From: Schmidtea nova
Lineage: Eukaryota
Direction: 5' to 3'
Length of the DNA: 64,000 nt
Assembly (NCBI GenBank): GCA_044892505.1
Contig: CM097883.1
Span: 232,376,001-232,440,000, forward strand
The notes beneath the pieces were generated by a model. The model was given only the letters and a program-made list of their open reading frames with translations. It did no database searches and was not told the origin of the DNA. How positions within the stretch are numbered: position 1 is the stretch's first letter; every line of letters begins with the position of its first letter. Shown in pieces: positions 1-44,185 of this stretch. The position numbers were made by a program, and so were the translations under genes.

Positions 1-1385
1 GGAAACATGACCCAATTCCCGTCTGGTTTCTGATATAATGGTCCGTATGCATTACTGCAATTGAAAGGGTTTGGTTCAAAACTAACTGGGTTAATGATTC
101 TTGTCACTGGTTGTACATATCTTATTTTCCCTTTATATTCAATTTCCAATTCGTTGGTACATTGTCCTTGTCGTATTCTGGTCGTTGGTGCTAGGTTTGC
201 TTGTGTCTTTTGGCATATATATACATACATAACTTCTCCAACTACTCTTCCAAAATGACCTTCGTTAAGTGGTAATAATGGCATCGCACTATCCGGGTTT
301 GTAATTGCTACTGCTAGTTTCGTCTTTAATATTTCTCTGTTCAATATACAGTCGTTGTTAATGAGATCGTAGTATATTTTTTCCATTGATGCTTGGCCTT
401 TATGAAATAAAAAATCTAATTTGTTATTTAAATATACGTGCAATTTGATGTCTGTAGTGTCTATCTTGGGCTTTGCATTTGGTGCTGCTTGTCTTGATAC
501 ATAAATACCTGGATAATTTGTTTCTAACATAGAAACACCACATTTTAATGCCGGTTTTCCTTTTACAAACCTCATTCCTATATTTGCGTTTGATGTAACC
601 AATACTGTTGGCGTCTCTCTCATTCTCACCTCTTTTTCTTGTACTTTAGTTGTGAACGGTTTCTCTCCTTTTACTGTCTCCTGTAGACGTTTTCCTCTTG
701 CTACTTCATCATCCTCTTCTTCCTGAAAGATTTTTCCTTGTACCTCGTCGAACTCTGCTTCCTTTAATAATTGTAATTGGCATTCATTTGCTTTTGCTCT
801 GTATGTTAAAGTTGACATACCGGTTTGACAAGTACTGGCTTCAATTTTGCACATTGATAACGTCTTCATTTCTCCTGTTGCTGGGTCAAAATATGCTTCA
901 TACGCTTTTAATTCTACCGTATATGTGTCGATCACTACCATGTTAGTTGCTGGTACTCCAAATATTGGATATGTTGCTCCTTGACAGTAACCTTCTCCTC
1001 CTGTGATAGCTCCTGCTACATAATATGTTTGTTGTAGTATTACTCCAGCTTTTCCTCTTATCTTTATTCGATCTCTTGTTTCGACTTCTCCATGTTTAAA
1101 CAATTTATTGCAATCTTCTCCTTGTAACATTATCGCTTCTCTTTCCGTTCCTGGCATTACGATTGCAGAGTAGTGGCGATGTCCACAATAAAAAGCAAAT
1201 CTTGTTTTATATATTTTACATTCATTAACTGTTGTCTTTATTAAGTCGGCTTCCTGATATACGTGATATATTTGTTTACTATGTAATACTTTTAATTCTG
1301 TTGGAGTTGCATCTTTGCATTGTTCTGTTCCTCTTAATGAATATTTTTCTCCTAATGCCATCTGGTCGCAATCAAATACTTCGAA
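1..1385 (-). other. Chuvirus-type / gB-like (class III) envelope glycoprotein ectodomain (partial)
   Basis: xFDC start after a signal-like segment, YVYQ-like HVYQE, CK...YCG.H..IV motif, and a LYxxxxxxxC.L...IL...P...G....GEV....C motif typical of chuvirus-like glycoproteins found in LTR elements. Confidence 0.75.
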
Positions 1386-4300
1386 CGCCGTTGCTCCTTC
1401 AATGCTAATTAGCCATATTAATATCATCATTATGATTGAATTCAGGTTTAGTGAAGGTTTTCCACTTCTTGTTCCTGACTTTTCTTTTTCTAATTCTCCT
1501 AAAATTTCTTCAAATTTCTTTTTCATATTCTTTGCTTGACTGTTTCTTTGATTCGTTTTAGCAAATGTTTCCCATCCTCCTTTACTGATGACGTATGGTT
1601 CTATTTCTTTTGCTATGATGCTTGCCGTATTTTTGATATGTTTCTCTATTGCCGTAGATTTTGGATTACCTCTACTCAATGTTAATAAGTTATAAATTGT
1701 ATACGCAATTGCTATCACATATTTATTATCGTTTTCTGCATCTTCAGTTAACCTCTTTATCAACGTTGTGGTCCCTTGCCAATCTAAATGGCTTGATTTT
1801 GTCTTCTCTTTTATCAGTTCGGGTAAGATTGGTGCGATTGCGCTATGTAATGCTTTAGCCTTGTCGCTTATTTCGTTTATTCTCCACCATTTTTTCAATT
1901 CTGGATCAATTATCGCCAATATTTCCATTAGTGTTTTTGATATCCATCCTTCACCTTGACATTTTTGCGTTCTTTCCTGGTCTTTTGCTTCTGCTATTTT
2001 GTTGAGTTTCTTTAAACATAATTCCCATTTCTCTTGTCTCCTTTCTTCTTTTGTTTTGTTGATTACATTGGCTGGATCTGTCTTTGGTCTACCTCTAGGT
2101 CGTCTATCCATTGTTGTACCTGTTTCAATCAATCTGGTTTCTCGTCCAGTTTCTTCTGTAACATCTCTTGGTTCATTATTTTTCTGTTCCCACCATTTTT
2201 CCATTTCTTGTGTTAATCGTTCGTTTTCTGTATTTGCTCCTCTTGTTTCTTCTTCAGAGATTTCGTTCACTTCTTCTATTTCTATTTCTTGCTCAACTTC
2301 ATCTTGGGTATTGATTGCTTGTGACGTTGTGGGTAACTCTTGTACTCTTTCGAAAATATTATTGCCTTTTTCTTTTGTCAATTTTGCTAATTCTTCTAGC
2401 ATGTCATCACTGTCTGTTAAGATTTCTTCTGCATCGTATGGTTGTGGTCGAGTTCTTTCTTGGGTTTTAGTTGGTGTTGTTTCATACTGTCTTGCGCTTG
2501 TTCCTGGCTTTATCTGCATCGTCTTCCTTAGATTCTGAGTATCTCCACTTTCTTTTATTCTTTTCTCTTTAAGTTTTAATGGTTGACCTGCTATTGCGTC
2601 TACTGTTAACGTATTTGCCAGTTCTAACTGTGCTGGCGTTATCAAAATTTCCATATCGTTTTCTAGTGATCGTCCTTGATGTTGTAGATGAAATGGTGGT
2701 TCATATTTTAATCTCTTTTTAACATCTCGAATTTTTTCGGTTAATTTTACCCAAAGCTCTTCCTTTTCTCGATCTGGATATATTATCCTTAAATGTATTT
2801 TCTGCGGTGGTTCTTGGGAGTTTTCTTGGTTTCTCCATTTCTTGATTACATTGTCTAATTGTTCTGGGCACCACTCGTTAACTCGTTTATATTCTGCTAC
2901 TACCTTGGCTACTTTTCTTAAACTGATTATATCTTCGCCGCCTGCTACAAAGAATTCGGCTAATCCTTTGATCGTTCGCCTTTTTCCTTGTACATTTCCT
3001 TTTAGTAATTCAATAAGTTCGTCAGCTTTTCGTCTTTGCGTTTCTAACCATATTGCTGCGGTTTCTGGTCCATCCAAATCTGTTGGCATGACTTTTCTTG
3101 TCACCATACAAATTCTTCCAATTTCTGGTTCATATTTATCTTCCATTTCTGGTCTAAATTCTTCTTCATATATACCTCCTTTTGCTTTCCAGCATTTCTC
3201 TTTAACATCCCAGTGTTTCTCTACTGGTGTTAATCGGCGTTCGTTGAAGTTTAATTCTCCTAATACATTTTCCCATTCTGGCTGTATCTGCCATCTTCGA
3301 TAAATTTCTATTATTTGTCTTAGTTTGTGCATCGCTTCTCTTTGACGTTCTTGTCTCCTTTTTTCGTCTTTTGGTGTTTCTCTTGGTGTATCATCCATTC
3401 TGATAACATGAATTGTTTGGTAATTATCCCATATACCAATTTTATATAATCGTCTCTCATCATGATCCCCTAGTACGTGTTCATTATATTTCATGATGAT
3501 ATCGTCTACCAATTCGTCTTCTTTTTCCCGTTGTAATAAGGTTTCATTGATAACATCAACTAATTCTTCTATTGTACAATCCGCGATTACTTCAATTTCT
3601 TTTGTGTCTTCGTTTGGTAATTTCACTTTGATTTTTAAATCTCCTATTTCTCCTCGTTTAAACATCGCTTTTCCCATTTTCGCGATCACTCTCCAAGTCT
3701 TGTATGACGAATGTCTCGTATGGCTGGTATCTCGTATATTTTCGATGCATTGTTTTAATTTCTCATATTCAGTTTTCGTTAATTCTTCTCTATTCTTGTC
3801 GATTTGTTGAATAATTTGTTCTATTAGTGAATTTAAATTTTCTCTGAGAATTCTTTCTTTCCTTTCTACTAACTGAGGTTTAATTCTCATCTCAAAACAC
3901 ATATTTGCTTCCTTTGCGATTTCTTGTAAATTTTCCTCTTTCTTATTGTCGCATATTGATAATGTTGTTATCTCTCCTGGCCATATGCCTGTTTCTACCA
4001 AATGCGTTGCTCGTCTTACAAGTTCATTTCCTGAATATATGAATTTGTTTTTATATGAACTTCCCAATCTGTCTTCTATCCATCGATAAATTTCGTTTGT
4101 GCATGGAGATTTGATCCAAATTCTTGGTGAACATTCGTTTATTTCTATTAAAATTATGTATTCATGGAGTGGTTCTTCTAATAGTTTGACGATGTATCCT
4201 GATAATATCTCTATTTCACGACTTTGTAATCGTTCTTTATAGTTCATTCGGAATACTGCTCTTATAAATTTTCGATATCGCTTCTTATCAATAAATTCTT

Positions 4301-6314
4301 CGTTATAAATCACTTCTAACGCATTATCTAATAGTTTCTGAATTTCATCTTCTTTAATTTGTATATTTTCTGGCGTCTTCGCTACTTCTATCTTGTTGTC
4401 TTCATTTTCTGGTTCTTTTAGCATATCTCCTGCTAAACTACTGACATCACTGTCACTTTCTACATCTGAAAATTCTCTAGTTAAGTTTCTTAACATGTTT
4501 ATATGTGCTGTCTGTTCTACTTTATCTGGTACATTTTTTGGTGGTATCTCTTCTTTTTTGTCATTGTTTTCTGATTCTTCTATTTGGTCTCTTCGTTTTT
4601 CTATCTCCATTGCTTTTCTCTGTTTGATTTTCTCTTCAAATATCTTCAATGCTCTACTTTTGACTTTTGTTACTGGTTTTGATTTCTCTTCATCGTTATT
4701 TTCTTCTATTTCTTGGATAACTGTGACTTTCATTTTATTCATTGGTACTCCTAAATCTTTCCATATGTCGGTTGGTTTCAATTTTATTGCTGCTTCGTCT
4801 TCTGTCTGTAAAATTGCTTCTCGGGGTAGTTTCGTCGTTCCCGGAATCGTCTTATTTACTTTATTAATTAATACTCCTACTTCCTCTTTTTCATCATATT
4901 CAAATTGAAATACATGATCGTTTGGCATGACTACCAACATCCTTTTTTGTTCAATAACTTCTTCGTTTTCTTGTACTATTTCTTTTTGGTTTTCTTCATC
5001 TTCCGGATTTGGGTTTATCCGGTTTGTTTCTGGTTCAATATCTTCTTTGTTATCTCTTGTTTGCTTCGTTGCTCTCATCATATTAATTCTCAATGGTTGT
5101 CGTTCTCTTTCTTGTCGTTTCTGTTCGTCTTCTCTTTGTATTCTTGCCCATTCTTGAGCATGTCGTGCTTGACTTTCTCGATTTAGTCGTTCATTTTCAC
5201 TTTCCACTTTTCTCATCATATTCATTTGTTGTTGATTCGTTTGTTGATTTCCTCTCGGTGTATTATTTATTAACTCTGTCAATCTCTGAACTTCTTGTAA
5301 TAAATGTATTTCTTTGGTGGTACTTTTATTCTGGTTATAATTACTCTGTTGATTTTCAAAATTCTGACGGTTTCCGTTATTCTGTTGATTCGCATAACTT
5401 TGTCGATTTCCGTTGTTCGACCAATTCCTTTGTTGGTTGTTTTGTTGTTGGCAGTTCTTTGCCATATGACCTGGTTGTCCACAGTTATAACATGAATTCA
5501 GGTAACATCTACTTTCCGAATGTCCTTTTCTTCCACACTTTTTACAATTTAAATTCGCGAAACATTCTTGTTGCCAATGTCCTAACTTTCCACAGGTTTG
5601 ACATTGCTTTGTCTGTCCTTGCGTATTATAATTATTTTGGTTTCCGAAATTTTGTACTTTGTTTCCTTCATTTCTCCTTTGAGGTGGTGGTCGATTTAAT
5701 TGTTGTGAGTTCGGAATATGGTTATTTATCTTCATTGCTTGTTCGTTTTGTGTCGTATCCATTGCTAGGTAAATTCTTCCTTCACTTCCGATCATATGTA
5801 ATTCAAATCTGTTGGCGATTTCCAACGCTTCATCTATTGTTTTACAACCTTGGCATCCAACTTGTGCTCTTATATCGGGTCTTCTCAATCCCCCCACAAA
5901 AATTGCTGCCATTAATTCTGAACTCATTGGACTATTTTGATTAAATGCTAATTTAGCCAATTTCTTTAATTCACTTGCATATACTGCATTTGATTCATTA
6001 ACTTTCTGCTTCCTCATGGAAAATTCTGTAAACGCTTCATTTAATACTTTATTTATTCCAAACGTTTGCTGGAAAAAATTCTTTATCTTTTCCCAACTAT
6101 CGAGTTGATCATCTGAATTTTTTGCTTCTAAATATAAGTCTAACGCACTGTCTTTTAAATATAACTGAATTCTGCTCCTTATCGTTTCTGGTTTCCATTT
6201 ACATACTTCTACAAATATACCAAATTCTTTTAAAAACGTTTCCAACTTGCTGGCATCTCCATTGAATGGTTCTCCAGTAAATTTATCTTTGATTTCTTCT
6301 TTATGTTCGTTCAT
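1..6314 (-). CDS. Gag-Ubl-Ubl-Bcl2-like-Env polyprotein (partial; open frame extends upstream to 6773 and runs off the window at base 1)
   Basis: Manual check of this minus frame found no stop from 6773 to 1 (2257 codons). First in-frame ATG is at 6314 (MNEHKEEIKDKFTGEPFNGDASKLETFLKEF, Gag-like). Knuckles CQTCGKLGHWQQEC, CKKCGRKGHSESRC, CYNCGQPGHMAKNC at ~5455-5605. Hydrophobic segment IIMMILIWLISIEGATA at 1386-1440. Ectodomain begins FEVFDCD and includes ECKIYKTRFAFYCGHRHYSAIV and DCILNREILKTKLAVAITNPD...GEVMYVYIC. Confidence 0.9.
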   Translation of the reverse strand, partial: MNEHKEEIKDKFTGEPFNGDASKLETFLKEFGIFVEVCKWKPETIRSRIQLYLKDSALDLYLEAKNSDDQLDSWEKIKNFFQQTFGINKVLNEAFTEFSMRKQKVNESNAVYASELKKLAKLAFNQNSPMSSELMAAIFVGGLRRPDIRAQVGCQGCKTIDEALEIANRFELHMIGSEGRIYLAMDTTQNEQAMKINNHIPNSQQLNRPPPQRRNEGNKVQNFGNQNNYNTQGQTKQCQTCGKLGHWQQECFANLNCKKCGRKGHSESRCYLNSCYNCGQPGHMAKNCQQQNNQQRNWSNNGNRQSYANQQNNGNRQNFENQQSNYNQNKSTTKEIHLLQEVQRLTELINNTPRGNQQTNQQQMNMMRKVESENERLNRESQARHAQEWARIQREDEQKRQERERQPLRINMMRATKQTRDNKEDIEPETNRINPNPEDEENQKEIVQENEEVIEQKRMLVVMPNDHVFQFEYDEKEEVGVLINKVNKTIPGTTKLPREAILQTEDEAAIKLKPTDIWKDLGVPMNKMKVTVIQEIEENNDEEKSKPVTKVKSRALKIFEEKIKQRKAMEIEKRRDQIEESENNDKKEEIPPKNVPDKVEQTAHINMLRNLTREFSDVESDSDVSSLAGDMLKEPENEDNKIEVAKTPENIQIKEDEIQKLLDNALEVIYNEEFIDKKRYRKFIRAVFRMNYKERLQSREIEILSGYIVKLLEEPLHEYIILIEINECSPRIWIKSPCTNEIYRWIEDRLGSSYKNKFIYSGNELVRRATHLVETGIWPGEITTLSICDNKKEENLQEIAKEANMCFEMRIKPQLVERKERILRENLNSLIEQIIQQIDKNREELTKTEYEKLKQCIENIRDTSHTRHSSYKTWRVIAKMGKAMFKRGEIGDLKIKVKLPNEDTKEIEVIADCTIEELVDVINETLLQREKEDELVDDIIMKYNEHVLGDHDERRLYKIGIWDNYQTIHVIRMDDTPRETPKDEKRRQERQREAMHKLRQIIEIYRRWQIQPEWENVLGELNFNERRLTPVEKHWDVKEKCWKAKGGIYEEEFRPEMEDKYEPEIGRICMVTRKVMPTDLDGPETAAIWLETQRRKADELIELLKGNVQGKRRTIKGLAEFFVAGGEDIISLRKVAKVVAEYKRVNEWCPEQLDNVIKKWRNQENSQEPPQKIHLRIIYPDREKEELWVKLTEKIRDVKKRLKYEPPFHLQHQGRSLENDMEILITPAQLELANTLTVDAIAGQPLKLKEKRIKESGDTQNLRKTMQIKPGTSARQYETTPTKTQERTRPQPYDAEEILTDSDDMLEELAKLTKEKGNNIFERVQELPTTSQAINTQDEVEQEIEIEEVNEISEEETRGANTENERLTQEMEKWWEQKNNEPRDVTEETGRETRLIETGTTMDRRPRGRPKTDPANVINKTKEERRQEKWELCLKKLNKIAEAKDQERTQKCQGEGWISKTLMEILAIIDPELKKWWRINEISDKAKALHSAIAPILPELIKEKTKSSHLDWQGTTTLIKRLTEDAENDNKYVIAIAYTIYNLLTLSRGNPKSTAIEKHIKNTASIIAKEIEPYVISKGGWETFAKTNQRNSQAKNMKKKFEEILGELEKEKSGTRSGKPSLNLNSIIMMILIWLISIEGATAFEVFDCDQMALGEKYSLRGTEQCKDATPTELKVLHSKQIYHVYQEADLIKTTVNECKIYKTRFAFYCGHRHYSAIVMPGTEREAIMLQGEDCNKLFKHGEVETRDRIKIRGKAGVILQQTYYVAGAITGGEGYCQGATYPIFGVPATNMVVIDTYTVELKAYEAYFDPATGEMKTLSMCKIEASTCQTGMSTLTYRAKANECQLQLLKEAEFDEVQGKIFQEEEDDEVARGKRLQETVKGEKPFTTKVQEKEVRMRETPTVLVTSNANIGMRFVKGKPALKCGVSMLETNYPGIYVSRQAAPNAKPKIDTTDIKLHVYLNNKLDFLFHKGQASMEKIYYDLINNDCILNREILKTKLAVAITNPDSAMPLLPLNEGHFGRVVGEVMYVYICQKTQANLAPTTRIRQGQCTNELEIEYKGKIRYVQPVTRIINPVSFEPNPFNCSNAYGPLYQKPDGNWVMF
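1555..1990 (-). other. Bcl-2-like domain within the polyprotein
   Basis: Helical region ending EIEPYVISKGGWETF (1563-1601; compare Bcl-xL HLEPWIQENGGWDTF). Distance from the BH1-position Asp (LTEDAEN) to the GGW Trp is 57 aa versus 56 in Bcl-xL. The NWGR motif is not conserved. Confidence 0.6.
2601..2798 (-). other. Ubiquitin-like domain 2 within the polyprotein
   Basis: IHLRIIYPDREKEELWVKLTEKIRDVKKRL..FHLQHQGRSLENDMEI aligns by eye with ubiquitin TLEV..TIENVKAKI..RLIFAGKQLED. Confidence 0.6.
3399..3638 (-). other. Ubiquitin-like domain 1 within the polyprotein
   Basis: LKIKVKLPNEDTKEIEVIADCTIEELVDVINETL...IIMKYNEHVLGDHDERRLYKIGIWDNYQTIHVIR follows the ubiquitin beta-grasp pattern (MQIFVKTLTGKTITLEV..DTIENV...LIFAGKQLEDGRTLSDYNI..TLHLV). 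Confidence 0.6.
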
Positions 6315-7519
6315 TTCGATTCCGCTGTCTTGTGTCGTTTTACTCTCGTTTCCTCTTGTTTCACTAGTATGCTCGTTATTCGTTTCGTTTGAATTATTAT
6401 CAATTTCTGCTTCTACTTCTTCTGTGTTTATTGACTCGTTATCTGATGCTTCCGTATTATTATAATTATCGTAGGTTTCACTTGAACTTTCTTCTGTTTC
6501 ACTTTCGTTAGTTTTTGTTAATTTATTGTTTTCGATTTTTGACTTTTCTACTATTACTCTTCTTGATTTACTTCCTTTAGGATTTGTTTTCTTTGTAACA
6601 CTGGTTGCTCTTTGTTTCGATTTATTTCTCTGTGAATTATCAACTTTTTTGATTGTAGCACTAACTGCTCTTGATCTCAATTTATTTCTTTGTGAATTAT
6701 TAACTTCTTGATTTTTAACTGTTCTTGATCTCGATTTACTTCTCTTTAATTTATCAATTTTTCTGTTTCTCTGTTATCGTATTCTGATTGATTGGTTGGT
6801 TGTTTGACTTGTTCTGTTCCGTGTATCTAAATTAAAAAGTCACTTCAACGATACATCATTGTTATCGTTGCGCTTTTATTCCTCATTATTGGGTTTCCAT
6901 TGTTTCCCCATTCCCGGTTTCCCCTTTATTTAAGTCTATTTAAATTATCTATTCACTGGTAACAATTATCTATATGGTCGTAATAATTATCTATCGTTAT
7001 CAAATAAATTCATTACTTTTCCCTCAGTCTCCCAATTTAATTTGTCGCTCAAACGCTTTAATTCCCTTGAGCTCTCCTGACTCAATTATCATTTTATTAC
7101 TATTCATTATATCATCATTACTCACTATTCTCACTAATCAACTCTAATTTCTCATCATTACTCACTATTCTCACTATTTCTACCGGTTTTTTTCCGGTCA
7201 ACTCTAATTTCTCTTATTCCTATTTCTACTCGTATGCATACTGAATCTCTAGTTTACTTAATCATCTTTACTCGTATTACTCAATTTCTAGTGCTCATTA
7301 CTCTTAACATCGTCGACGATTACAACTTGGTTTTATTTCATCTCTGTTGCTTATTTATTCCCTTGGCTCTCTACGCCATAATTTAATTTATTCACTTGAC
7401 TCTTCTCTAATTTATTCACTTATTCACTTGGCTCTTCTATGCCCTAATTTAATTTATTCGCTTGACTCCATGGCCCTTCTCTAGGGAAAATACCTTCTTA
7501 GAGAATAATCACCTGCTTA

Positions 7520-8480
7520 GTTAGGCCTTTGACCCTTCTTTCGGGGTAATCTTAAATAATCTGACTTGTTTGCTCTTGACCTTTTTTTTACAAGGTATTT
7601 AACTAATATGGCTTGTTTGCCCTTGACTCTTCTTTCAGAGTATTTGACTAATATGGCTCGTTGGCCCTTGACCTTTTTGTACAAGGTATTTAACTCATCT
7701 GGCTTGTTTGCCCTTGACTCTTCTTTCCGAGTATTCAACTAATATGGCTCGTTGGCCCTTGACCTTTTTGTACAAGGTATTTACTCATCTGGCTTGTTTG
7801 CCCTTGACTCTTTTTCCAGAGTATTCAACTAATATGGCTCGTTGGCCCTTGACCTTTTTGTACAAGGTATTTAACTCATCTGGCTTGTTTGCCCTTGACT
7901 CTTCTTTCAGAGTATTCAACTAATATGGCTCGTTGGCCCTTGACCCTTCTTTCAGAGTAATTAACTAATATGGCTCGTTGGCCCTTGACCCTTCTTTCAG
8001 AGTAATTAACTAATATGGCTCGTTGGCCCTTGACCCTTCTTTCAGAGTAATTAACTAATACGGCTCGTTGGCCCTTGACCCTTCTTTCAGAGTAATTAAC
8101 TAATACGGCTCGTTGGCCCTTGACCCTTCTTTCAGAGTAATTAACTAATACGGCTCGTTGGCCCTTGACCCTTCTTTCAGAGTAACTAATATGGCTTATT
8201 TGCCCTTGACCCTTCTTTCAGAGTAACTAATATGGCTTATTTGCCCTTGACCCTTCTTTCAGAGTAACTAATATGGCTTATTTGCCCTTGACCCTTCTTT
8301 CAGAGTAACTAATATGGCTTATTTGCCCTTGACCCTTCTTTCAGAGTAACTAATATGGCTTATTTGCCCTTGACCCTTCTTTCAGAGTAACTAATATGGC
8401 TTATTTGCCCTTGACCCTTCTTTCAGAGTAACTAATATGGCTTGTTTGCCCTTGACCTTTTTATACAAGGTATTTAACTA
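7520..8480. repeat. Tandem repeat array in the element 1 leader (about 20+ units of 41-45 bp, core GCCCTTGAC)
   Basis: Alternating dimeric units at ~7590-7920, 45-bp units from 7921, and 41-bp units from ~8190. Confidence 0.95.
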
Positions 8481-9075
8481 ATCTCTTTAACCGGTTAACC
8501 GCACTTATCCACTTCACTAGTTATCATTCAGCTGAATTATCTCTATTTTTATAAGAGTTATCACATTAACTTTCATTCTACTTATTTACTTAATGTTCTT
8601 TCGACTTCCACTGATCAGTGTTCTATTCTCTCTTTTTTATTTGTATTTTCTGCATGCACTTAAACCTCATTAGATTGTTCCTACCTTTCACCCCAACCAA
8701 AACATACAAAAAGATCGCATTGGTCTACTAATGCAAGATGTGGTGATCAGTCACATCACAAAAGCTTTCCAATATCCGCGATGGGCCCCTTTCTATACAT
8801 CTCGGGTAAGTTGATCAGTTGGTTCCTCCCAATGGGTGCTTAACGGACTACTCGTGAGCAGCTCAAAAATTATTTATAAATATCAATTGTTATTATGATT
8901 TCTGTCATTGCCATTATCAATTTTCATTATACATTCTCGTTGTCAATTCTCATATTAATTCTCATTATGAATTCTCATATTAACTCTTATTATGAATTAT
9001 CATATTAATTCTCCTTATCAATTAATTCATTATCCTTTATCACAAATCATATTATTCAATTTCAAAATTTATTTA

Positions 9076-9537: not shown

Positions 9538-10244
9538 TGCTAAATAATTGATATTGTTAATATGTTTGCTGTTTTATTTAGTATATAAAAAAATAAAGAT
9601 TTCAATATCTTGTTTCTCTATTTGTTCAATTTGTGTTGGTCAAAAGTAGTGGTACATTTCGTTTTCTGATGTTAAACCTCTCCCTGTTTCATCAAATTGT
9701 CGTCCCGACATATTTATTTATGTTTATTTATTTTATTTTAATATCAATTATTAATCGTCTGTTGTTATATTTATTCAATAGTTGTTTTTCAAAATTCTCT
9801 GTTGATATTGTTTTCACTTTTATACAAAAATCAATTATGTTTTCGGCTGAGGGGCACTTTAAAACTCCTGGTTATTATTGGATTCAATTTTTCGCACAAA
9901 AACCAATTTGATCCCGGCTGAGCCCCCAAATTTATGTTGTTGGTTTCGGTTGGGTTAAAACAAAAATACAAAATGAATTAATAATTATTTTTAAACGCTC
10001 TAGGGATTCCTCCATCCAAAACCTCACATAAAATGCTTACATATCACACGAGCACCCTCGATCATTTCCCTGTAATAATCGAGTTGGAAATGTGCAAGGT
10101 GTTTGAACAATGATGGGCAGGTGAGCTCTATTGCTAAAACTACTCCCCATTTATGTTCACGGGTTCGTCTCGCTGCCGATAGAAGGACTTACGCTTTAAT
10201 TTTAATCTATCCGCATCCATTTATCTTTCATTTCAATTATTTCT

Positions 10245-10350
10245 TTTCGCCCCCTTTCGTTACAATATATTTCAACTTTCAACTTTTCTTTCAGCCCCCT
10301 TCTTTACAATATATTTCAACCTTCAACTTTTCTTTCAGCCCCCTTCTTTA
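10245..10350. repeat. About 2.5 copies of a ~43-bp repeat (cagcccccttctttacaatatatttcaac..ttcaacttttcttt)
   Basis: Direct repeats visible in the sequence. Confidence 0.8.
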
Positions 10351-10554
10351 CAATATCAACAAATAATATTTTTACGATATGTTATTTCTTTAATGCTATT
10401 ATTGTTCATTACTTTATGTCAATCTTTTATTTATAATCTACATTTAATTTAATTTAAAAATCCTTTAATAAAATACTTTAGTTCATATACTTTACAATAA
10501 AATAAATACAAACAAAAATTATTTAATAAGCAAAATTTACAAATCACAAAATTT

Positions 10555-11145
10555 CTATTCAAAATATTTGGAAATGTCTTCATCTGATATTGTAAAATTC
10601 ATGTTCAAATCAATTTCTGGAATGTTGTTTGATCGTTGTGCCAATTGCTGGAGAACTTGTTTCTTCCAGCGACGCTGACGCGCGCCCATCTTACTCTTCT
10701 TTTTCTTTTTGACTTCTGGAATTATTACGTCCTTTGGTGTGATTGAGGCCGCCGTTGCTTGAACCTGAGATGGTTCCTCTGTGCTTGTTCCTTTTGAGCA
10801 TCCTGCCTTTTCGTCAGCCCAATGCTGGTAAGTGATTGGTCGAATGAGCTGGCTGAGCTCTTGAGTTAGATATGATGCCGTTACAGATTTTAGGCATTTC
10901 TTTAATTCCATCTTCGTTGCGTCCAATTCCATTTGCAGTTCGCTGTTAGCTCGCTGTGAGCGTTGAGTTTTGGTGATTTGCATTTTCATTTGGTCTGGAC
11001 TGAACCAGCTTTTCTTTAGGTTGGAAATTATTCCATCGGCTTCTTTTATTTTCTCTGACTTTCGCAGCATTTCCTTTTCCAGGCTGCGAATTATTCTCCA
11101 GGCTTTGTCTAATTCGGCTTGATTGGTTGCTGTGTTTGCTGACAT
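10555..11145 (-). CDS. Accessory protein of unknown function: coiled-coil N-terminal half plus basic KKKKKSKMGARQRRWKK segment
   Basis: Intact 196-aa ORF on the same strand as gag, with acceptor TTTTAG|AAA-ATG just upstream. Confidence 0.7.
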   Translation of the reverse strand: MSANTATNQAELDKAWRIIRSLEKEMLRKSEKIKEADGIISNLKKSWFSPDQMKMQITKTQRSQRANSELQMELDATKMELKKCLKSVTASYLTQELSQLIRPITYQHWADEKAGCSKGTSTEEPSQVQATAASITPKDVIIPEVKKKKKSKMGARQRRWKKQVLQQLAQRSNNIPEIDLNMNFTISDEDISKYFE

Positions 11146-11873
11146 TTTCTAAAATTCAAAATGGTTTATTGACATGAAGTTAGTAGTCTTGATTCGAACG
11201 ATTCTCATACCTTTGACAATTGGTAATTGTTAATTTAGGAAAAGAAAATGATGTACCTATTACGCTTTCAACACTGTCGCTATGTACAGCGATCAGATAC
11301 ATTTATTTCATAATGCATTTTATTTATTTACGCCTGTGCTATATACAGCATTCAGGATAAGAAAATTATTAAAATAAACTAAGATCCACTGCCCTATGTA
11401 CAGGGTTCAGGATAAGCAATTATGTTTAATTATTTATGTGGAATGTTTGATCCTATAGCCTATTGCTGCTATGTTACTTGCGTAGTAGATCACTACGCTA
11501 TTAAATTATCGATTTTTATGTTATTGTTAAAATTACATTTTGTACAAATTCTTAACCCTGCATCTGCCGCTCTATGCCCACAAACCCCAGATGTGACAAT
11601 CGAAAAATATAGGTTAACATTCGGTGAATTCCAATATAAAATCAGATTAGAAAAATCACAGCTATATCTGTCTCAAACTAAAATCAAAATTCAACTTAAC
11701 TATAAACTCTAAAAATTTAAATCGATTATAAAATAAAACTTCAACTGGTTATACTATCCAGTGAAAATAAGGTTAAAATCATTGTTAAATAAGAATTCCT
11801 ACCCTCGTCACGGCGCTTTACACCGGTCGGACGGCCTAACTGTACGGAGCAGTCGTTTCTACTCGGCACAGTA

Positions 11874-11881
11874 TGCCTCCA
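11874..11881 (-). promoter_or_regulatory. Candidate primer-binding site TGGAGGCA (tRNA-Thr-like 3' end)
   Basis: Directly follows ...AACA at the candidate LTR end. Only 7-8 nt match metazoan tRNA-Thr 3' ends as I recall them. Confidence 0.35.
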
Positions 11882-12514
11882 TGTTCCCGATTGCACGGTG
11901 AACGGAGCCCCTTAAATCATACGTAAGTTTATACTATAAATACGGTATATAGATAATATATATATTCGCCTCCTTCCACTGATTGCACAGTGGAAGAAGC
12001 TCGACCCAAAAATTACTTCTAAAAAATATACTTGTTAGTTGTTAGTATAAACTGATACTGTTACCTCCTTCCACCGATTACACGATGGAAGAAGCTTAAT
12101 AAAAGATATATAATATATAAATATAGTCATCTCCTTCCACTGATTTCACAGTGGAAGAAGCTTGGTTAAATTCTATATTCGACAAAAATTTAAAAAATCA
12201 TATATCATAAAATATTTTATTAACAATTAACTACAATGGTCAATGACAGATAATCACAAAATTTATAAATTCAATAAAACAAAAATACTCATACCTTTCA
12301 AGTTCTGTTCAAATATCTTTCAGTATCAAATAATCACAAGATCATAAAATCACAAAGTGTTTGTTTTAAAACTTTCAAACTTTAAAAACTTTCAACTTAA
12401 AAACTTAAAAACTGCTTAAATGCTGCTTAAATTTTAACTGAATCTGGATCAGTATATATACTGATCAGATCAGATCACTGACCAATCAGCATCAATCTGA
12501 TGGTCATCAATACA
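11882..12514 (-). repeat. Candidate 5' LTR of element 1 (633 bp, TGTA...AACA)
   Basis: TGT/ACA termini; CCAAT at 12482; TATA inside a perfect palindrome GATCAGTATATATACTGATC (12447-12466); AATAAA at ~12216-12221; followed by TGG. The partner LTR is not in the window. Confidence 0.55.
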
Positions 12515-14890
12515 ATAAAATCAAAAATAAAATCAATTTTTTTAACAAATATAATTTTCATTTTCTTGTTTTAATTTACCGATTTTTTTATTAATTCTTC
12601 TTCTTTTTTACTTATTTATTTCGCTTTCTTATTATTTAAATATAATTAATTATCATTTTTCTTTAACACTTTTACATTTTCTATTTACATTCTTCTAAAT
12701 TTTGATAGAAAATTAATATTCTTTATTACATTTTAATTTGTTTTTACTGATATTTTCATAATTATTTTTATTTTAATTTATTCTTATTTTCTCTCTTATT
12801 ATTATTATTTTTCATGCTAAATGTGGACCAAATGGTGGATCCAACAATATATATATATATACAAAAATATTTTCAATAAACTTTTGACTTCTTTCTGCTT
12901 TTCTTTCCCATAACAATGATTTCTTTTAAATTTGTTGTAATCGTAAAGGAATAATTTAAAATATAATATAAATAATAATAATTTTCTACATTGAAAATCG
13001 TGAAATATTTTGTTCAATCAATTCAAAGAAAGCCTAATTTGTTTTATACTAAAATAAATGAATTAAAATTCGGCTTGATTTAATTTGTCATAATTGTGAT
13101 TACAGTTTCTTGGCAAGCTAAATTCTGTCAAAAATAATTTTGTTTTTTATTTTTCTCTCATCGGTTTCCTCAGTGAAAATCTATCTATGGGCGTTCTTTT
13201 GTTGAGAGTTTGTTCTTTGTTTTATTTTTTGAAATTCAATTGTTTTCTAAATATTTTTATTTCATTTTATTTATTATTAATTTAACAAATATTTTTCAAC
13301 TTTGAAAGGCTATATAGAAATTATTATTTTCATTTGTTATGGAATTAATAAATGTGAGAAATTAAAAAGTCGAGATGTAGAGAAAAGAATTCAGTTAAAA
13401 ACATAAATTTATATTATTTACAATTTTCTTTCTGTCAAAATTGATGGCAAATATAATCTTATACTCAAACTCAAAAATATCATAATTTAATTACTCACAT
13501 ATTACGTATATGCGTGTTATTTTAATTATAAATATGTAAAAAATTATATTTCAAATGGCATACTAGTTTAGAGCCCATTTGGCAGTCATCAATATTGTGT
13601 ACAAATCAAACCTTGTAGACATACAGACAAGTCCGAGAACCTAAAAATGTTAATGCTGAAAATTCGTGTTAAATAAAAACAAAAGCAATTACTGATAAGC
13701 AATAAAAATAAATAAAGATAAAAAATTGTACAAGTGTCAATGGTGAAAAATCATATTTAATTAAATTTTGATTTATTTAGCAATAAAATGCTTTATAAAG
13801 TTATTTGTAATTAATTAAAAGGGGTTTAGATATTAAAAATATATTTATACAATATTTTGTTACTTTAATTGTAAATTATAAAATAATAAAAGTTTAATTT
13901 TTTAAAGTAACTTTATTAAATATCTAATTTATTCATAACATTATGAAATATATTCGTTATTTTATTAGACCGAAATATTATTGAAGAAATTATGGAAATT
14001 ATCTGACAATAAATTCCATTTCATTCAATATCTCACACATTAAAATTATATTTTTTCTTACAATTATTATATTTAAAGAAAACTAAAAGATAATATTTTT
14101 AGTTAAAATTATTGACTTTAATTTATTTTCATTCTTTTAAATTATAGATCAAACATGTTTTGAATTTAAGACAAATTTTCAAAGAAAAAGTGTGCCAAAA
14201 TTATGTGTCAAATTGAATGAAAAAAGAAAAAACATTGAAAATAAACAAAGTCCTAAAATAATTGATGAATGTTGAACAGATAAATAATTCACTATTGTTT
14301 TGTAATTATTTGTTTGTATATATTTAATTAAAATTATCGTAACAAATTTTTATTTAAAAATGTTAAGTTAGATTTTTAAAAATAAATTATTTAAAATCAT
14401 TAAATATAATTCATTAAAAATATTTATTTAAAATTTATTAAAATTTAATGTTTAAATTTCAAAATTATAAAACTTAAATGATTTATATTTCGGGTTGACT
14501 CCTCGGGTTTATCTCAAAGGACATTCAGAATTTAGGCCATTTTTACCTCATCCTATTTTGTTACATATTGTCACAAAAGAATTTGATAAATAAATATAAA
14601 TAAAATTATTTGTTATATTAAATAAATAAATAAATAAATATTGTTAATGCCGTATTTTATTATCGCTATTTATTATTTTTCATGTATTTTATGGTATAGA
14701 GACCCCCCAGTTGTATTTGGGATGGTGTTTACCAATTATTATTATTATTACTATCATTATTAAAATTCAAATTTTTAAATTGAATTAAATAGCTTACTAG
14801 AGTAATATACTATAGTAAGCTAATGACAAATAAAAAAATCAATTTTATATTTTGATATTTTAATCCGGCGTATAAACGAATTAAACAAGT

Positions 14891-34899: not shown

Positions 34900-35200
34900 T
34901 CGATGTAAAATATGAATTGGGAGACATAGTAAATGAAGTAAAAAACAGAATCCCTAGTATCATGCAACGATTTGGTAAAGTTTTTCTGATAAAGAGGTCA
35001 TCGAGAAATTAACTAGAAATGAAATTACTAGAGAAGTGATATTAATGAGCTTAACTTATGTAATTTTGGAAATTGGTGCTCATAACATCATGAAATCAGA
35101 TGAATTAGAAAATAAGATAGATACTTCTGCTCGAAATATAAACACATACTTAATGAGTTGGAAAAAAAAGATTGGAGGTTGGGACAAATTGATGAAAATG
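34900..35200 (+). pseudogene. Element 2 Bcl-2-like domain
   Basis: NTYLMSWKKKIGGWDKL. Aligns ungapped over 48 aa with element 1: KS..[IL]E..I...A..I......[YW]....GGW. Confidence 0.55.
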
Positions 35201-36034
35201 TTTATAATAAATGAAAACGAAAATGACGAAGAAAATCTACCTCAAAAATCGCTAAATGTGAGAGTTAGTCCAGAAACGAGGAAGACTATTATGTTTCCCT
35301 GGGCAATCTTTATGATAATTCATTTGTGTGCAGGAATCACATAGGTAACGAGTATAAATGCTTATGATTGTTCTAAAACAGAAATGGGAATAATTTATTC
35401 GGTTATAGATATGGCAAAGTGTTCAGACGCATATCCAAGAAAATTAAAAATAGAAAATGATGTGAAATACTATGTATATCAAGAGTCTGATTTACGACGA
35501 ACACCGGTAAGAGAAAGTATGGTTAAGCGTACTGCCTTTATATTTTATTGAGCAAATGCAGCCATACTTCATTGATAAAAATATATACAATCACACTGCC
35601 AGTGGGAGTTATGCCGGAAAATTGCCTCACTGCTTTTCAAACAGGAGAATTAAAACTAAATGCAGAAATTAAATTAAAAGCAAAACGAAATCATAGAATG
35701 AGAGAAACAGTGGTCGTAAAAGGAGTAATGAAACAAGATGGAGATTGTGAAGGTGAACCATACAAAGTAGATGGAAAAATAATCAAACAATCTGTAGTAA
35801 TTGAGGAATATTTTACGGAATTGAGGGAATTTGAAGGACCTTTTGATGTTGATACGGGAAAGTTGCAGACACATCCATTTCTTAACATGAAGCAAACTAA
35901 TTGCCAAACGGGAGAGTCAATCCTTTTGTTTAATGTCAAAACCTAGGCATGTAATTTGGCGCACTTAAAAACTATGAATTTCAAAGAATTGTGCGGAGAA
36001 CAGTTTCGAGAACGACTAGACAATTTTAATACTA

Positions 36035-37737
36035 CTGTAAAATCCCGAGTATAAGCTGCAGCTAATACGTACATTAAGGCAACATTTCTGAATTGCAGCT
36101 AATATGATGTGCAGCTTATACAACTAAAAAAGAAATCAAATCGAAGATAAGATTATTTATTTCAATTTTCATCATCACACTCCTCAAAACCATCACATTT
36201 TTCATTGTCAATAAAAGTGAAATTTTCTAGTAATTCTACAATGTTTGGATCAGACTCGTTCACATTCATTTCATTTTCTTCAATTTCAAGAACAATGTTC
36301 GTCTTCACCGAATGCAACACAAAAACCATTCAAAATGGTGGAAATGTTAACATCTTCCCAAGAGGAAACAATCCATTCGAAAAAAGTATTCCAGTCAGCT
36401 GCTTTCATATTTCCGGACTTAGTATGTTTGATGTTTTCATAATCTTTAATGATCCAATCCTTCCACTTCTTGCGCAATTTTGACTTGAACGAAAGGTTAA
36501 CAGTAAGATCTAATGGCTGCACCTTTGATGTCAATCCGGCAGGTATGAAAGCTACTTTGGATTCCTTCTTAATTTTATCAAGTGTAGTACTGACAAGATG
36601 TGAGATATGCATATCAAATAAAAGCAATGATGGTACTTTTGGATCTTGGTTCCATGGTGTCTTTGGAGGTAATGTAATTCGACTCTTCCATACTTTCTTG
36701 AGCCATATCTCAAGAGTTTCATGGTTCATCCAACCAGAGCCATTAGCTGCAATAACAAGCTTTGATTCAGGAATGCAAGTCTTTGGATGTTTCTTTGTGC
36801 CCAAAATAACAAAAGGCGGAAGTTTAGTACCATCTTTGAGAACACATAGATTGACGGTAAATCGTTTTTTCTCATGTCCTGTAGTTTTAATTCGGACCTC
36901 CTTGGCACCTTTAGTCTCAATTGTGTACCCTAAAGGCATGTCACATTGAACGGACACTTCATCAAAATTACCAATTTGATTATCTGGCAAATCCTTCTTT
37001 AAATCTGCGATGGTGCTTCTAAACTTGGCCATCTGAAATTCCCAATCTTTCGGTAATTGTTGCTTCGTGGTAGGCCGTCGAACAAAAATATTCTTGCGTT
37101 TCATGAAATTATCAGTCCATTGAGAGCTCGCGACAAATCCTTCAATTTTCATCTCTTTGGCAATTACTTGTGCCTGTAAACGAATTCGAACAACCGACAC
37201 TTGAAGATCTCGTTCACGTTGAATTAGGATCCATTCGTGTAATTTCGTTTCCAATTCCGGATATCTAGCGTTACCACCACGCAATGATCTTCGATTTGGA
37301 TTCATTGCTTTGATAACAGACTCTTGGGCGATCCATCGTCGAATAACAGTTTTATTAATATCATATCGTCTTGCAACCTCCCGTATGTTTCCTAACTGAC
37401 GAGCTAATTCAATAACTTCTTTTTTCTTTGCTGAACTAAAAGATCTTCGTTGTTTCTTTTGTTTTTGTTCCAAATCGTTATCCATTTTAATCAAGGATTC
37501 AAAAAGTGCAATAAACAATATAAACGATATAAACGATTAAAACAAAATTGTTATTGTTTTTTTAATGATATTTGATATGTGTTTTTTAATGATAGGTTGC
37601 TGATTTTAAAATCAGGAGTTTCCAACGCAAATGGTGCAGCTAATACGTGCTGTGGTTTATACGACTAAAAAATACATTTTTATAAAAATGTCATCTGCAG
37701 CTAATACGCGCTGCAGCTTATACTCGGGATTTTACAG
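36035..37737 (-). mobile_element. pogo/Tigger DNA transposon, complete ends
   Basis: 28-bp perfect TIR ctgtaaaatcccgagtataagctgcagc; TA duplications at 36033-34 and 37738-39. Excision restores the env frame (FNTNYTPN). Confidence 0.95.
36286..37518 (-). CDS. pogo/Tigger transposase (CENP-B-like HTH, HTH_Tc5, DDE_1)
   Basis: RRSFSSAKKKEVIELA HTH; YPELETKLHEWI; FVASSQWTDNFMKR; catalytic NFDE, LLFD..SH, QPLD. The acidic tail appears to continue in a shifted frame. Confidence 0.92.
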   Translation of the reverse strand: MFIALFESLIKMDNDLEQKQKKQRRSFSSAKKKEVIELARQLGNIREVARRYDINKTVIRRWIAQESVIKAMNPNRRSLRGGNARYPELETKLHEWILIQRERDLQVSVVRIRLQAQVIAKEMKIEGFVASSQWTDNFMKRKNIFVRRPTTKQQLPKDWEFQMAKFRSTIADLKKDLPDNQIGNFDEVSVQCDMPLGYTIETKGAKEVRIKTTGHEKKRFTVNLCVLKDGTKLPPFVILGTKKHPKTCIPESKLVIAANGSGWMNHETLEIWLKKVWKSRITLPPKTPWNQDPKVPSLLLFDMHISHLVSTTLDKIKKESKVAFIPAGLTSKVQPLDLTVNLSFKSKLRKKWKDWIIKDYENIKHTKSGNMKAADWNTFFEWIVSSWEDVNISTILNGFCVAFGEDEHCS

Positions 37738-40618: not shown

Positions 40619-40727
40619 TGTGAGATAATAAGACAATTTAAATATTTATTCAGTCAATAAATCTACTTATTTAAACAACTTTATTTTCTTTTATAAATCA
40701 TTATTTTAAATTATTCTTCTTTATACA
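40619..40727 (-). repeat. Element 3 3' LTR
   Basis: Identical to 44077-44185. Confidence 0.97.
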
Positions 40728-41611
40728 TCTCCCCGAGATTCTAACAAATCTTCATTCCTGTGCCTCAAGTCAGCTACATGACGCGGCATTGCCACGGTTC
40801 CGTAATCGACGATTGCTTTATGCGGAGACAGCAGCTTCATGATTCTTCCTCTCATCCAGGAAGATGTACATGGTTGATTTTGCGCGGGTTTCACCCACAC
40901 CTTGTCGTTAATCTGAAAGCCATTGTCTATTTGTTGAGCCGTTCTTTTCGTTTCATTAAATCGAAGTCTTAGGTCATAAGCGTAAATGCCTTTTATCGGA
41001 GGTCTGGAAGAACCATTTACTGGTGTATTATTGTACCAGTAAATTGCTTCTTGCACTGAGCATTCCGATCGCGTGACTGCAGCTTTTATTGTTTTATGGT
41101 TCCTCTCAATAATGCCGTTGCCTGCTGGTCTATTAGCGGATCTGAATTCAGTTCTAATTCTCCACCTTTTCATTAGAGAAGTGAAAGTTTCTGACCTAAA
41201 CGATAAGTAATTGTCCAACAGAAGCTCGTCAGGAGGTCCTCTTTCATAAAATACCTGTTCCAACTGTTTGCAAATTTCGTCTGCGCTTTCGTTTCGTATT
41301 TCTCGCCAAATCGCAAATCGAGAAGGCCCGCAATCTATGATTGTTAAAAATTTTCTTTGATGTAATTTAGTCACATCGATAGCTAATCGTTTCCAAGAAT
41401 CTTTTACCTCTAATTGCCCTTTGCTGATCTTAACCGGATGAGGGTCTATTGATTGACATTTGTCACACTTTTCGACTATCTCTTTTAACTCATTTTGAGA
41501 AAGGTTAATTCCTGCTTCCTCGGTCAAGAACCTCAACCGATCTCCTCCGAAATGGCTTAATTTGTGTATTTCAACTGCGTTCTTGATGGGATCTTCACCC
41601 GGGTCTAGCAA
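40721..41611 (-). CDS. Element 3 integrase (in frame with RT/RH but behind one TGA at 41639-41)
   Basis: HKLSHFG...CDKC zinc-binding motif; LAIDV, LLLDN, GIIERNH catalytic DDE; stop lies inside the 3' LTR. Confidence 0.9.
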   Translation of the reverse strand: MLDPGEDPIKNAVEIHKLSHFGGDRLRFLTEEAGINLSQNELKEIVEKCDKCQSIDPHPVKISKGQLEVKDSWKRLAIDVTKLHQRKFLTIIDCGPSRFAIWREIRNESADEICKQLEQVFYERGPPDELLLDNYLSFRSETFTSLMKRWRIRTEFRSANRPAGNGIIERNHKTIKAAVTRSECSVQEAIYWYNNTPVNGSSRPPIKGIYAYDLRLRFNETKRTAQQIDNGFQINDKVWVKPAQNQPCTSSWMRGRIMKLLSPHKAIVDYGTVAMPRHVADLRHRNEDLLESRGDV

Positions 41612-41638
41612 CGCCGTATTACACGTATGTTTCGTAAT

Positions 41639-43399
41639 TCAATTTGAGGGAATTCTGGTTAATATGTCGGATTTATTTTTGTCTGTTGGAACGTATTCTA
41701 TTTCAGCCTTTATCTCATATTCAATAATTAATTCTTTAATTATGTTGAGCCTTCTTTTTACTAACATTTCTGAGGAAGCTTTAGTTGAAACCTTTCTCTC
41801 GGATGTCAAGGCATTATGTACCCAACTTACCACGGATTTGTTATCCGACATGATCTTAACAGTCTTTAAATTCCATTTGATGCATAAGTTGATGCCTTTA
41901 ACGATCGCCTCAAGTTCGCACAGGTTAATGTGCCTAACGTCCTTCTCCTTTCTCAACCAGCATGCGTCTTCCATAATATTTCCGTCGATTTCTAGCGCTG
42001 CTCCTATGGCGATAGAGCTGGCATCACACCATAAAATATTTCCTCTGTCCATTGGTGCTTTCCATATACCATGAGCTGGATCATTCTTTTCAACCTCCTT
42101 TATTAACCATTTAACTTTGTTTAGTAATTGAACGTCGATTGGCCGGTCCCATTCTCCTTCGCTTAATCGTTTGAGATAAGAGCACGCGGGTCGTAACCAA
42201 CCTGCAACTGGAAGAATTCCGGTTAATTGACCGCATAACGAATACAGTTCTCGTCTGTCCATTCTCTTTTCTTCAAATTCGTACCGGATGACATTGGCTC
42301 GGTTCCATTTTAATAAGTTATCCTCAATATGAACTGATAATCCAAGTATTCTTAGAGCTTTTGTTGATGAGGGGCGTTCAATTTCTTTCGTCATCAAGTT
42401 AAATTTTCCTAGCCAGGCTTTTACTTCTTCAGCTGGGACAACTTCTTCGTCGATAAAAATATCGTCAATGTACGCACTGGCTCCTTGTTTTATTCTGTCA
42501 TTTAAACCCAACACGTAGTTAACGATCTCTGTCATAATACTGGGAGCGATATTGATTCCGAAGCCTAGTCTTGTCAATGCATATCGCCTTCCGTTTACAA
42601 TGCATGACTGGTACTTCCACATACTCTCATCAACCCGGATTTGCATGTATGCATCAGATAAATCCAAAATCGCTATTTTCTTTCCCTTCTTTCTCCAATC
42701 TCTTATTGTTTCATTGCAAACTACTGCTTCTCCACTATAGACGTCTAAATAATGATTTAAAGCTCTAAAATCGAACACTGGCCGTATTTTGCTCTTGTTC
42801 TTTTGCATAACCGGAAATAAAGTTACTGCTCCAACAGGCTTACCGAACCGGTTTTCGTCATATTCGACTAACCATCCATTTTTGACCCACTGCTCGATGA
42901 CTTTGAGAGCCTGGCCTGCTTTGGGCTTATCTGGATCTAACTTGGAATATCGATCTGACATTGATACTGGGGGTTCTGTGTTCCAATTCCATGATACCAT
43001 CCATTCTTTGTTGAACGTTGCTTCGAAGTTCTTCCTTTGAATTAAAAAACTCTGAGCTTCGTTTCCGTTTACAGCCATAAAACATTTCAATTCACATCCG
43101 AATCTGACGTCTTCACTGATTGTCACTCCTCCTAGTGCTATAATGGCGTTCATACCTAATATGACATCATATCCCGCTATCATTTTTCTAGAAATAAAAC
43201 AGTCAATGATAAAGTACTTTCCTTCTAATTCGATTTCTGCCTTGCTCTGGCTCACTGGCAGTATTGATCCATCTGCTAGGAACACTTGAGCGTTGGGTGA
43301 TGTGATGGCTTCTCCGCGTATAATTGTTGTCGAGCAGCCGGAATCTATAAGACAAAGACGTTTTGATCCATTTATGGAAAGGAGTCTTTCTTTTAACAT
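41639..43399 (-). CDS. Element 3 protease-RT-RNase H
   Basis: LIDSGC; RPVFDFRALN; LDLSDAYMQI; RLGFG; YIDD; WCDASSIAIG; ELEA; SDN. Confidence 0.95.
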   Translation of the reverse strand: MLKERLLSINGSKRLCLIDSGCSTTIIRGEAITSPNAQVFLADGSILPVSQSKAEIELEGKYFIIDCFISRKMIAGYDVILGMNAIIALGGVTISEDVRFGCELKCFMAVNGNEAQSFLIQRKNFEATFNKEWMVSWNWNTEPPVSMSDRYSKLDPDKPKAGQALKVIEQWVKNGWLVEYDENRFGKPVGAVTLFPVMQKNKSKIRPVFDFRALNHYLDVYSGEAVVCNETIRDWRKKGKKIAILDLSDAYMQIRVDESMWKYQSCIVNGRRYALTRLGFGINIAPSIMTEIVNYVLGLNDRIKQGASAYIDDIFIDEEVVPAEEVKAWLGKFNLMTKEIERPSSTKALRILGLSVHIEDNLLKWNRANVIRYEFEEKRMDRRELYSLCGQLTGILPVAGWLRPACSYLKRLSEGEWDRPIDVQLLNKVKWLIKEVEKNDPAHGIWKAPMDRGNILWCDASSIAIGAALEIDGNIMEDACWLRKEKDVRHINLCELEAIVKGINLCIKWNLKTVKIMSDNKSVVSWVHNALTSERKVSTKASSEMLVKRRLNIIKELIIEYEIKAEIEYVPTDKNKSDILTRIPSN

Positions 43400-44064: not shown

Positions 44065-44076
44065 GCCCGGATAGCT
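44065..44076 (-). promoter_or_regulatory. Atypical PBS AGCTATCCGGGC, complementary to nt 1-12 of tRNA-Lys(UUU)
   Basis: Plus strand reads GCCCGGATAGCT, the known 5' end of metazoan tRNA-Lys3. It abuts the LTR CA and there is no TGG-type PBS. Confidence 0.75.
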
Positions 44077-44185
44077 TGTGAGATAATAAGACAATTTAAA
44101 TATTTATTCAGTCAATAAATCTACTTATTTAAACAACTTTATTTTCTTTTATAAATCATTATTTTAAATTATTCTTCTTTATACA
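44077..44185 (-). repeat. Element 3 5' LTR
   Basis: Identical to 40619-40727. Confidence 0.97.

Follow-up and report, generated by a model that had tools for sequence, protein, structure and literature searches.

The window (the whole 64,000-nucleotide stretch of DNA analysed) contains the 5' part of a 25,369-bp LTR element with identical 2,912-bp TG...CA LTRs and (AT)n on both flanks, the identity of the LTRs indicating a recent insertion. ORF1 of this element encodes, in one frame, Gag, a Bcl-2-like domain, a hydrophobic segment, Env, a transmembrane (TM) helix and a protease (Table 1). Past the window edge, the rest of Env, the protease and ankyrin repeats were recognised with Pfam.

Table 1. 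Positions in the window of the element's features and of their counterparts in a second, decayed element
Feature	Position	Strand	Remarks
5' LTR, 2,912 bp, TG...CA	9935..12846	-	0 mismatches against the 3' LTR outside the window (L121/L031)
ORF1 polyprotein, 5' part, 2,257 aa	3..6773	-	open frame leaving the window; 4,140 aa in total
Gag capsid-like region	5883..6164	-	Retrotrans_gag PF03732, E 1.1e-5
CCHC zinc knuckle, better of two	5445..5495	-	PF00098, E 4.2e-10, two stretches
Weak ubiquitin-like match	3540..3635	-	OTU1_UBXL, E 0.0066, below cut-off
Predicted Bcl-2-fold domain	1548..1970	-	ORF residues ~1602-1742
BH1-equivalent	1701..1751	-	N and one basic residue retained; W and G of NWGR substituted
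BH2-equivalent, EPYVISKGGWETF	1563..1601	-	inside the open frame 3-6773 (-)
Charged linker	1452..1562	-	length varies among lineages
Hydrophobic segment and polar end with A-x-A	1386..1451	-	predicted internal Env signal peptide; predicted cleavage between 1386 and 1385
Env ectodomain	3..1385	-	Monjiviricetes_fusion PF24664, E 1.6e-43; runs past the window to a TM helix and protease
Decayed element 2 (a different family), Bcl-2-like domain, C-terminal half	34979..35341	+	GGW at 35174
Element 2, BH2-like motif, TYLMSWKKKIGGWDKL	35144-35191	+	
Element 2, hydrophobic segment	35285-35341	+	closed by an in-frame stop; Env remnants next

A search of the element's own genome gave 1,588 candidates, of which 150 were scored, all at 79-100% identity, and a frame of 5,140 aa occurs in at least 24 of these 150. 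One such copy encodes Gag-Bcl2-Env-PR-RT-RNaseH-IN-Ank. RT, RNase H and integrase are absent from the window copy, which lacks ~1,000 aa (RT to IN) and in which the protease is followed directly by the ankyrin repeats. At least 15 of the 150 scored copies are 95-100% identical, with frames of 4,108-4,140 aa. They suggest a non-autonomous subfamily that has been amplified and retains Gag, Bcl-2 and Env, the missing RT-IN part having been checked in the window copy alone.

In both subfamilies a full TRAF-like accessory ORF (RING-like, zf-TRAF and MATH) lies downstream of ORF1 (L031 2431-3918 (-); L123 1221-2627 (+)), and beyond it are more conserved ORFs that have no Pfam family. After the ankyrin region, ORF1 goes on with further short segments that are hydrophobic and resemble signals, with repeats containing Cys and with a final TM (L031 4354-9999 (-), C-terminal third; L032 residue ~2912), a region suggesting that this polyprotein is also cleaved into additional luminal or secreted products. 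An RPRGRPK motif, which we take to be AT-hook-like, precedes the Bcl-2 domain (window ~2082-2105 (-)), with similar motifs in F3, P0003, P0004 and the Bcl-2-less P0016. Tandem arrays of ~45/91-nt and 41-nt units occupy 7508-8542, in the leader that separates the 5' LTR from ORF1.

According to a published account (PMC6431247), planarian Burro elements carry a BCL2-like motif (citing Grohme 2018) with env in frame between BCL2 and protease, a Dugesia tigrina Burro element has a 5,140-aa ORF1 with two CCHC knuckles, and interference with apoptosis has already been proposed for these elements. As described there, the giant gypsy LTR elements Burro/GYPSM1 share with the window element one huge ORF, a Gag with two CCHC knuckles, the BCL2-like motif, an env in frame between BCL2 and protease with mononegavirus-type matches, ankyrin repeats and a TRAF/MATH accessory ORF (PMC6431247). 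They differ in RT, RNase H and integrase, which are absent from the window copy, and in the TRAF ORF, which is downstream of ORF1 here and upstream in the Burro description (PMC6431247). Of the BIR, dUTPase and SUMO-like motifs of Burro, the first two gave no Pfam match here at E 0.05 and the ubiquitin-like match is weak; the Burro paper used HHpred (PMC6431247). The Burro order of BCL2-like motif, env and protease, with ankyrin repeats and TRAF/MATH, was recovered, and the Burro size (one Gag-Env-Pol ORF of ~4,900-5,140 aa in a giant LTR element) is reached by the 5,140-aa PR-RT-RH-IN relatives, the window copy being shorter and RT-less. The assignment to Burro is by architecture, which also makes a planarian the likely host.

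The Bcl-2-like domain and its place before env are already known from Burro elements, and the present results confirm this published feature. They add a fold test that used no cellular template, evidence that the domain is under selection in more than one family, and an argument from topology for the Env signal; the element section of the Burro account has no fold test, signal analysis or topology (PMC6431247). Among the papers listed in the literature search, none dealt with a shared signal/anchor or tested the domain functionally, and Grohme 2018 with its supplements may already cover signal and topology. GAG-ENV-POL errantiviruses with an HSV/gB-type Env, present in Platyhelminthes, Nematoda and Bryozoa, resemble the window element in gene order and in an Env ectodomain between a signal peptide and a TM, or between two TMs (PMC13524379). 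The strings 'bcl', 'burro' and 'apopto' do not occur in the main text of that paper.

Ancestry, fold and conservation of the Bcl-2-like domain

As a single sequence, the window domain matched no Pfam family, gave no Atlas match at or above 0.9 and reached Bcl-xL in the PDB at E 0.49-1.4, which is not significant. A profile of 18 other (non-F1) element rows scored the window domain at 54.9 bits (best shuffle 8.7, 497 of 500 scored), and a profile of 10 cellular Bcl-2 proteins scored it at 29.1 bits (best shuffle 6.8, 494 of 500 scored). Family profiles matched PDB entries at E 6e-8 and 1.8e-10, all 60 among the matches listed being Bcl-2 family members, and hhalign of a family profile with the host Bcl-2 profile gave a probability of 95.7. 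Two sister-family copies exceed the Pfam Bcl-2 (PF00452) cut-off of 31.4 bits (L073, 34.9; L074, 34.7), and one sister-family copy has an Atlas Bcl-2 match of 0.94. In the reciprocal direction, the cellular Bcl-2 protein P0014 retrieves element families in this genome (best E 7e-5), and the matches of a search for host Bak/Bax BH3 exons were dominated by element copies. The same module is present in eight element groups of this genome (F1a, F1b and F2-F7) and in several proteins from other assemblies. Judged by these profiles, the Bcl-2 ancestry of the domain is real. The top match of one homologue search, P0002, was dropped as a cadherin repeat protein (4 bits against profile A6).

In the tree, all 19 element domains fall into one group (support 97/97), whose putative sister group consists of L069, P0012, L071 and L083 (support 72/85, 82 columns). 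The domain probably stems from a single capture of a host Bcl-2 gene that came without its anchor. A search with alignment A5 for longer homologous proteins found none at E 0.001 among 7,995 candidates, which is weak evidence. The host has at least about 10 Bcl-2-family exons (L064-L072, L083 and L085), among which we take L065 and L067 to be Bok-like and L068, L070 and L085 to be Bak/Bax-like, by motif.

The fold was modelled from a 21-row element-only alignment (pLDDT 80.4, pTM 0.69), which includes no recognised cellular Bcl-2 and has three short rows without context (P0005, P0008 and P0010) that group with elements in the tree. The model predicts a helical bundle around a central hydrophobic helix. 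VIA-align placed its residues 28-168 on Bfl-1 with Z 13.5 (rmsd 2.9 over 138 residues), a score close to the chance level attainable by helical bundles; ranks 1-34 are Bcl-2-fold chains only, and the first unrelated chain appears at Z 6.5. In Foldseek, all 44 among the matches listed belong to the Bcl-2 family (prob 1.00, TMq 0.47-0.64), none reaching E 0.001 (best 1.5e-3), and the viral structure matches are headed by v-Bcl-2. Comparison with Bcl-2 structures thus yields, as a prediction, the bundle on which the initial annotation had made its reading depend. A first model from 8 rows was discarded as poor (pLDDT 59.7, pTM 0.35, TM 0.2-0.3 to Bcl-2).

The BH2-like motif first noticed in this open frame, EPYVISKGGWETF, is present and follows the pattern W/Y-x-x-x-x-GGW. 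The distance from the BH1 Arg-equivalent to the BH2 Trp is 50 residues in the window, compared with 49 in Bcl-xL and in 6 of 10 cellular rows, as the claimed spacing within one residue of Bcl-xL had it. The canonical BH1 NWGR is missing from the element domains (19 rows): none has the Trp and one has the Gly, with Lys or Arg at the Arg position in 16, whereas 8 of 10 cellular rows have the Trp and 7 the Gly. BH3 binding by the domain is uncertain because NWGR is degenerate. An NWDR-like motif in L074 was rejected as ancestral, the Trp being absent from three other copies of the L074 family.

The GGW is kept in 29 of 30 close copies, in 30 of 30 copies of the element 2 family and in 9 of 9 alignment rows, a constancy in two window families that agrees with what the initial annotation expected of a Bcl-2 motif. 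Between the window and a 5,140-aa copy, dN/dS is 0.078 for the domain (0.039-0.122, 168 codons), close to the 0.087 of Env, and ranges from 0.11 to 0.44 in upstream segments outside domains; in six other pairs it is 0.15-0.43 for the domain against 0.01-0.07 for the start of Env, all these ratios being rough because dS exceeds 1. These codon comparisons show purifying selection on the domain across several families, and the suggestion of selection drawn from the recurring motif holds.

Cellular pro-survival Bcl-2 proteins (Bfl-1/A1, Bcl-xL, schistosome, Trichoplax) resemble the domain in predicted fold (Z 11.7-13.5), in the BH2 GGW and in BH1-BH2 spacing, whereas the element domain has a degenerate NWGR and no nearby Gly/Ala-rich anchor and is embedded in a polyprotein. 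Viral Bcl-2 folds (herpes v-Bcl-2/BHRF1, ASFV A179L and poxvirus M11L, N1, A52 and A46), which are stand-alone DNA-virus genes with tested functions, are similar in fold, in being virus-like cargo and in the erosion of BH motifs. They differ from the element domain, which sits in a polyprotein and whose function is putative.

The hydrophobic segment between the domain and Env

The initial annotation placed a hydrophobic segment about 45 aa past the BH2 motif, where a Bcl-2 tail anchor would be. The distance is confirmed, since in the window the segment begins 41 aa and its best 12-residue core 46 aa past the BH2 Trp, and the place is not the usual one for an anchor. By the same measure, the core begins 31-60 aa past the Trp in 15 Bcl-2-bearing elements and the anchor 18-27 aa past it in 8 of 10 cellular proteins. 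This cellular baseline is small and mostly of one clade, 8 of the 10 being P0015 and relatives. The remaining two, P0019 and P0021, are atypical, with an extended tail or no clear anchor. Gly plus Ala makes up 0.0-0.05 of the element segment, whose core is Ile/Leu/Met-rich, compared with 0.25-0.5 of cellular anchors, and the 19-residue hydropathy is similar (element mean 1.9; cellular anchors 1.6-2.3).

The register of the segment is fixed to Env and not to BH2, the end of the core lying 8-12 aa before the Env DC motif in 16 of 16 elements. Small residues occur at -3 and -1 at one register in 15 of 16 elements, compared with at most 5 of 16 at 17 other registers; the cleavage site was predicted with this simple rule. 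The Env profile PF24664 begins right at the predicted site. The segment is the sole hydrophobic one within the first 2,257 aa, the next coming after the Env ectodomain, and 14 Cys lie past it, compared with 2 in the Bcl-2-like domain. In P0016, a single protein on one contig, the same segment and Env are present with no Bcl-2 match. By rule, the segment has the features of an internal signal peptide, namely a basic n-side, a hydrophobic core, small residues at -3 and -1 and a luminal ectodomain just after. It lacks those of a Bcl-2 tail anchor, a Gly/Ala-rich TM ~20 aa past BH2 at a native C-terminus; Env follows it in frame.

Position, composition and cleavage pattern, together with the Bcl-2-less relative P0016, make it likely that the segment serves Env as an internal signal peptide and is not a Bcl-2 anchor. 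The same four lines of evidence divide the earlier proposal of a tail anchor that doubles as the Env signal, supporting the role as Env signal but not the identity as Bcl-2 anchor. The segment may still double in a limited sense, by anchoring in the ER after cleavage rather than by descent from a Bcl-2 anchor.

Proposed topology and competing explanations

The preferred reading, at a probability of about 0.68, is of a Burro-type gypsy polyprotein in which a diverged, predicted Bcl-2 fold precedes Env and the segment is the Env signal, left after cleavage as a makeshift ER anchor. Gag through Bcl-2 would be made in the cytosol, the segment would thread Env into the ER lumen, signal peptidase would cut after A-T-A and the Env TM would bring protease and Pol back to the cytosol, a sequence of threading, cut and return that is highly probable. 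The cleaved signal would then be the C-terminus of the Bcl-2 part, in the topology of a tail anchor. The chances are about even that it remains embedded in the membrane and keeps the Bcl-2 domain, whether or not upstream Gag is still attached, at the cytosolic face of the ER. In flavivirus anchored capsid and HCV core, a polyprotein signal is retained as the C-terminal anchor of the upstream protein. The element is alike in that one segment would serve the following glycoprotein as signal and the preceding protein as tail, and differs in that its upstream unit is a host-derived Bcl-2 fold; retention here would be by analogy.

An ER-held domain might, tentatively, dampen host cell-death or innate signalling, probably in a way other than canonical BH3-in-groove binding, because the BH1 Trp and Gly are gone. 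The TRAF ORF (RING, zf-TRAF and MATH) and the ankyrin repeats favour control of host death or innate signalling. The most elaborate form of this proposal, an ER-anchored Bcl-2-fold inhibitor that reuses the cleaved Env signal and, with TRAF and ankyrin cargo, sustains producing cells or quiets innate signalling through a non-NWGR interface, is unlikely in its entirety. Were it true, an LTR retroelement would possess a functional Bcl-2 of the viral kind, and an active anchored domain would mean a multi-copy retroelement tuning cell death in an animal reliant on stem-cell turnover. The domain is small and open to direct testing.

A canonical pro-survival function, in which the domain would bind BH3 helices of the host's Bak, Bax or Bok as the v-Bcl-2 of herpesviruses and poxviruses does, is somewhat unlikely. 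The full predicted bundle, the best matches to pro-survival proteins and v-Bcl-2, the Lys or Arg that 16 of 19 domains have in the place of the BH1 Arg and the Bak/Bax/Bok-like exons of the host (labelled by motif) agree with such a function. The BH1 Gly is required for BH3 binding, however, and the near-complete loss of Trp and Gly (0 and 1 of 19, compared with 8 and 7 of 10 cellular rows) argues against it, as does signal-type insertion, which would lead to the ER and not to mitochondria. The fold could also have been co-opted for assembly: the retained signal would tether an unprocessed Gag-to-Bcl2 precursor to the membrane, and the domain would pair with Env there in a juxtamembrane, matrix-like role, without any target in the host. 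This would explain the constant place of the domain between Gag and Env in all lineages, its Env-like constraint in the window family and the lost groove motif. Such co-option is quite improbable, since P0016 manages without the domain, its dN/dS in other pairs exceeds that of the start of Env (0.15-0.43 compared with 0.01-0.07) and the TRAF and ankyrin modules fit control of host signalling.

Capture of a whole Bcl-2 gene with its own tail anchor, later re-used as the Env signal, has little probability. It would account for the place of the segment after BH2 in 15 of 15 Bcl-2-bearing elements examined and for its hydropathy, which is like that of cellular anchors, and long drift could have shifted spacing and composition. 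The distance (46 aa in the window), the low Gly plus Ala, the register tied to Env, the cleavage pattern in 15 of 16 elements and the segment without Bcl-2 in P0016 all count against such descent. That the domain is a chance helical spacer with GGW and no Bcl-2 ancestry would fit the non-significant single-sequence searches; it is refuted by the reciprocal profile matches, including those retrieved with P0014, and by the element-only model, and its probability is vanishingly small.

Element 2 and neighbouring transposons

The initial annotation also reported that the BH2-like motif recurs in a diverged second element, and TYLMSWKKKIGGWDKL was found there, followed by a hydrophobic segment and Env remnants (Table 1). 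The Env of element 2 is split by a Tc5/DDE_1 DNA transposase frame (36289-37536 (-)). A small element at 40619-44185, with RT, RNase H and integrase matches (40721-43456, -), is bounded by 109-nt identical direct repeats.
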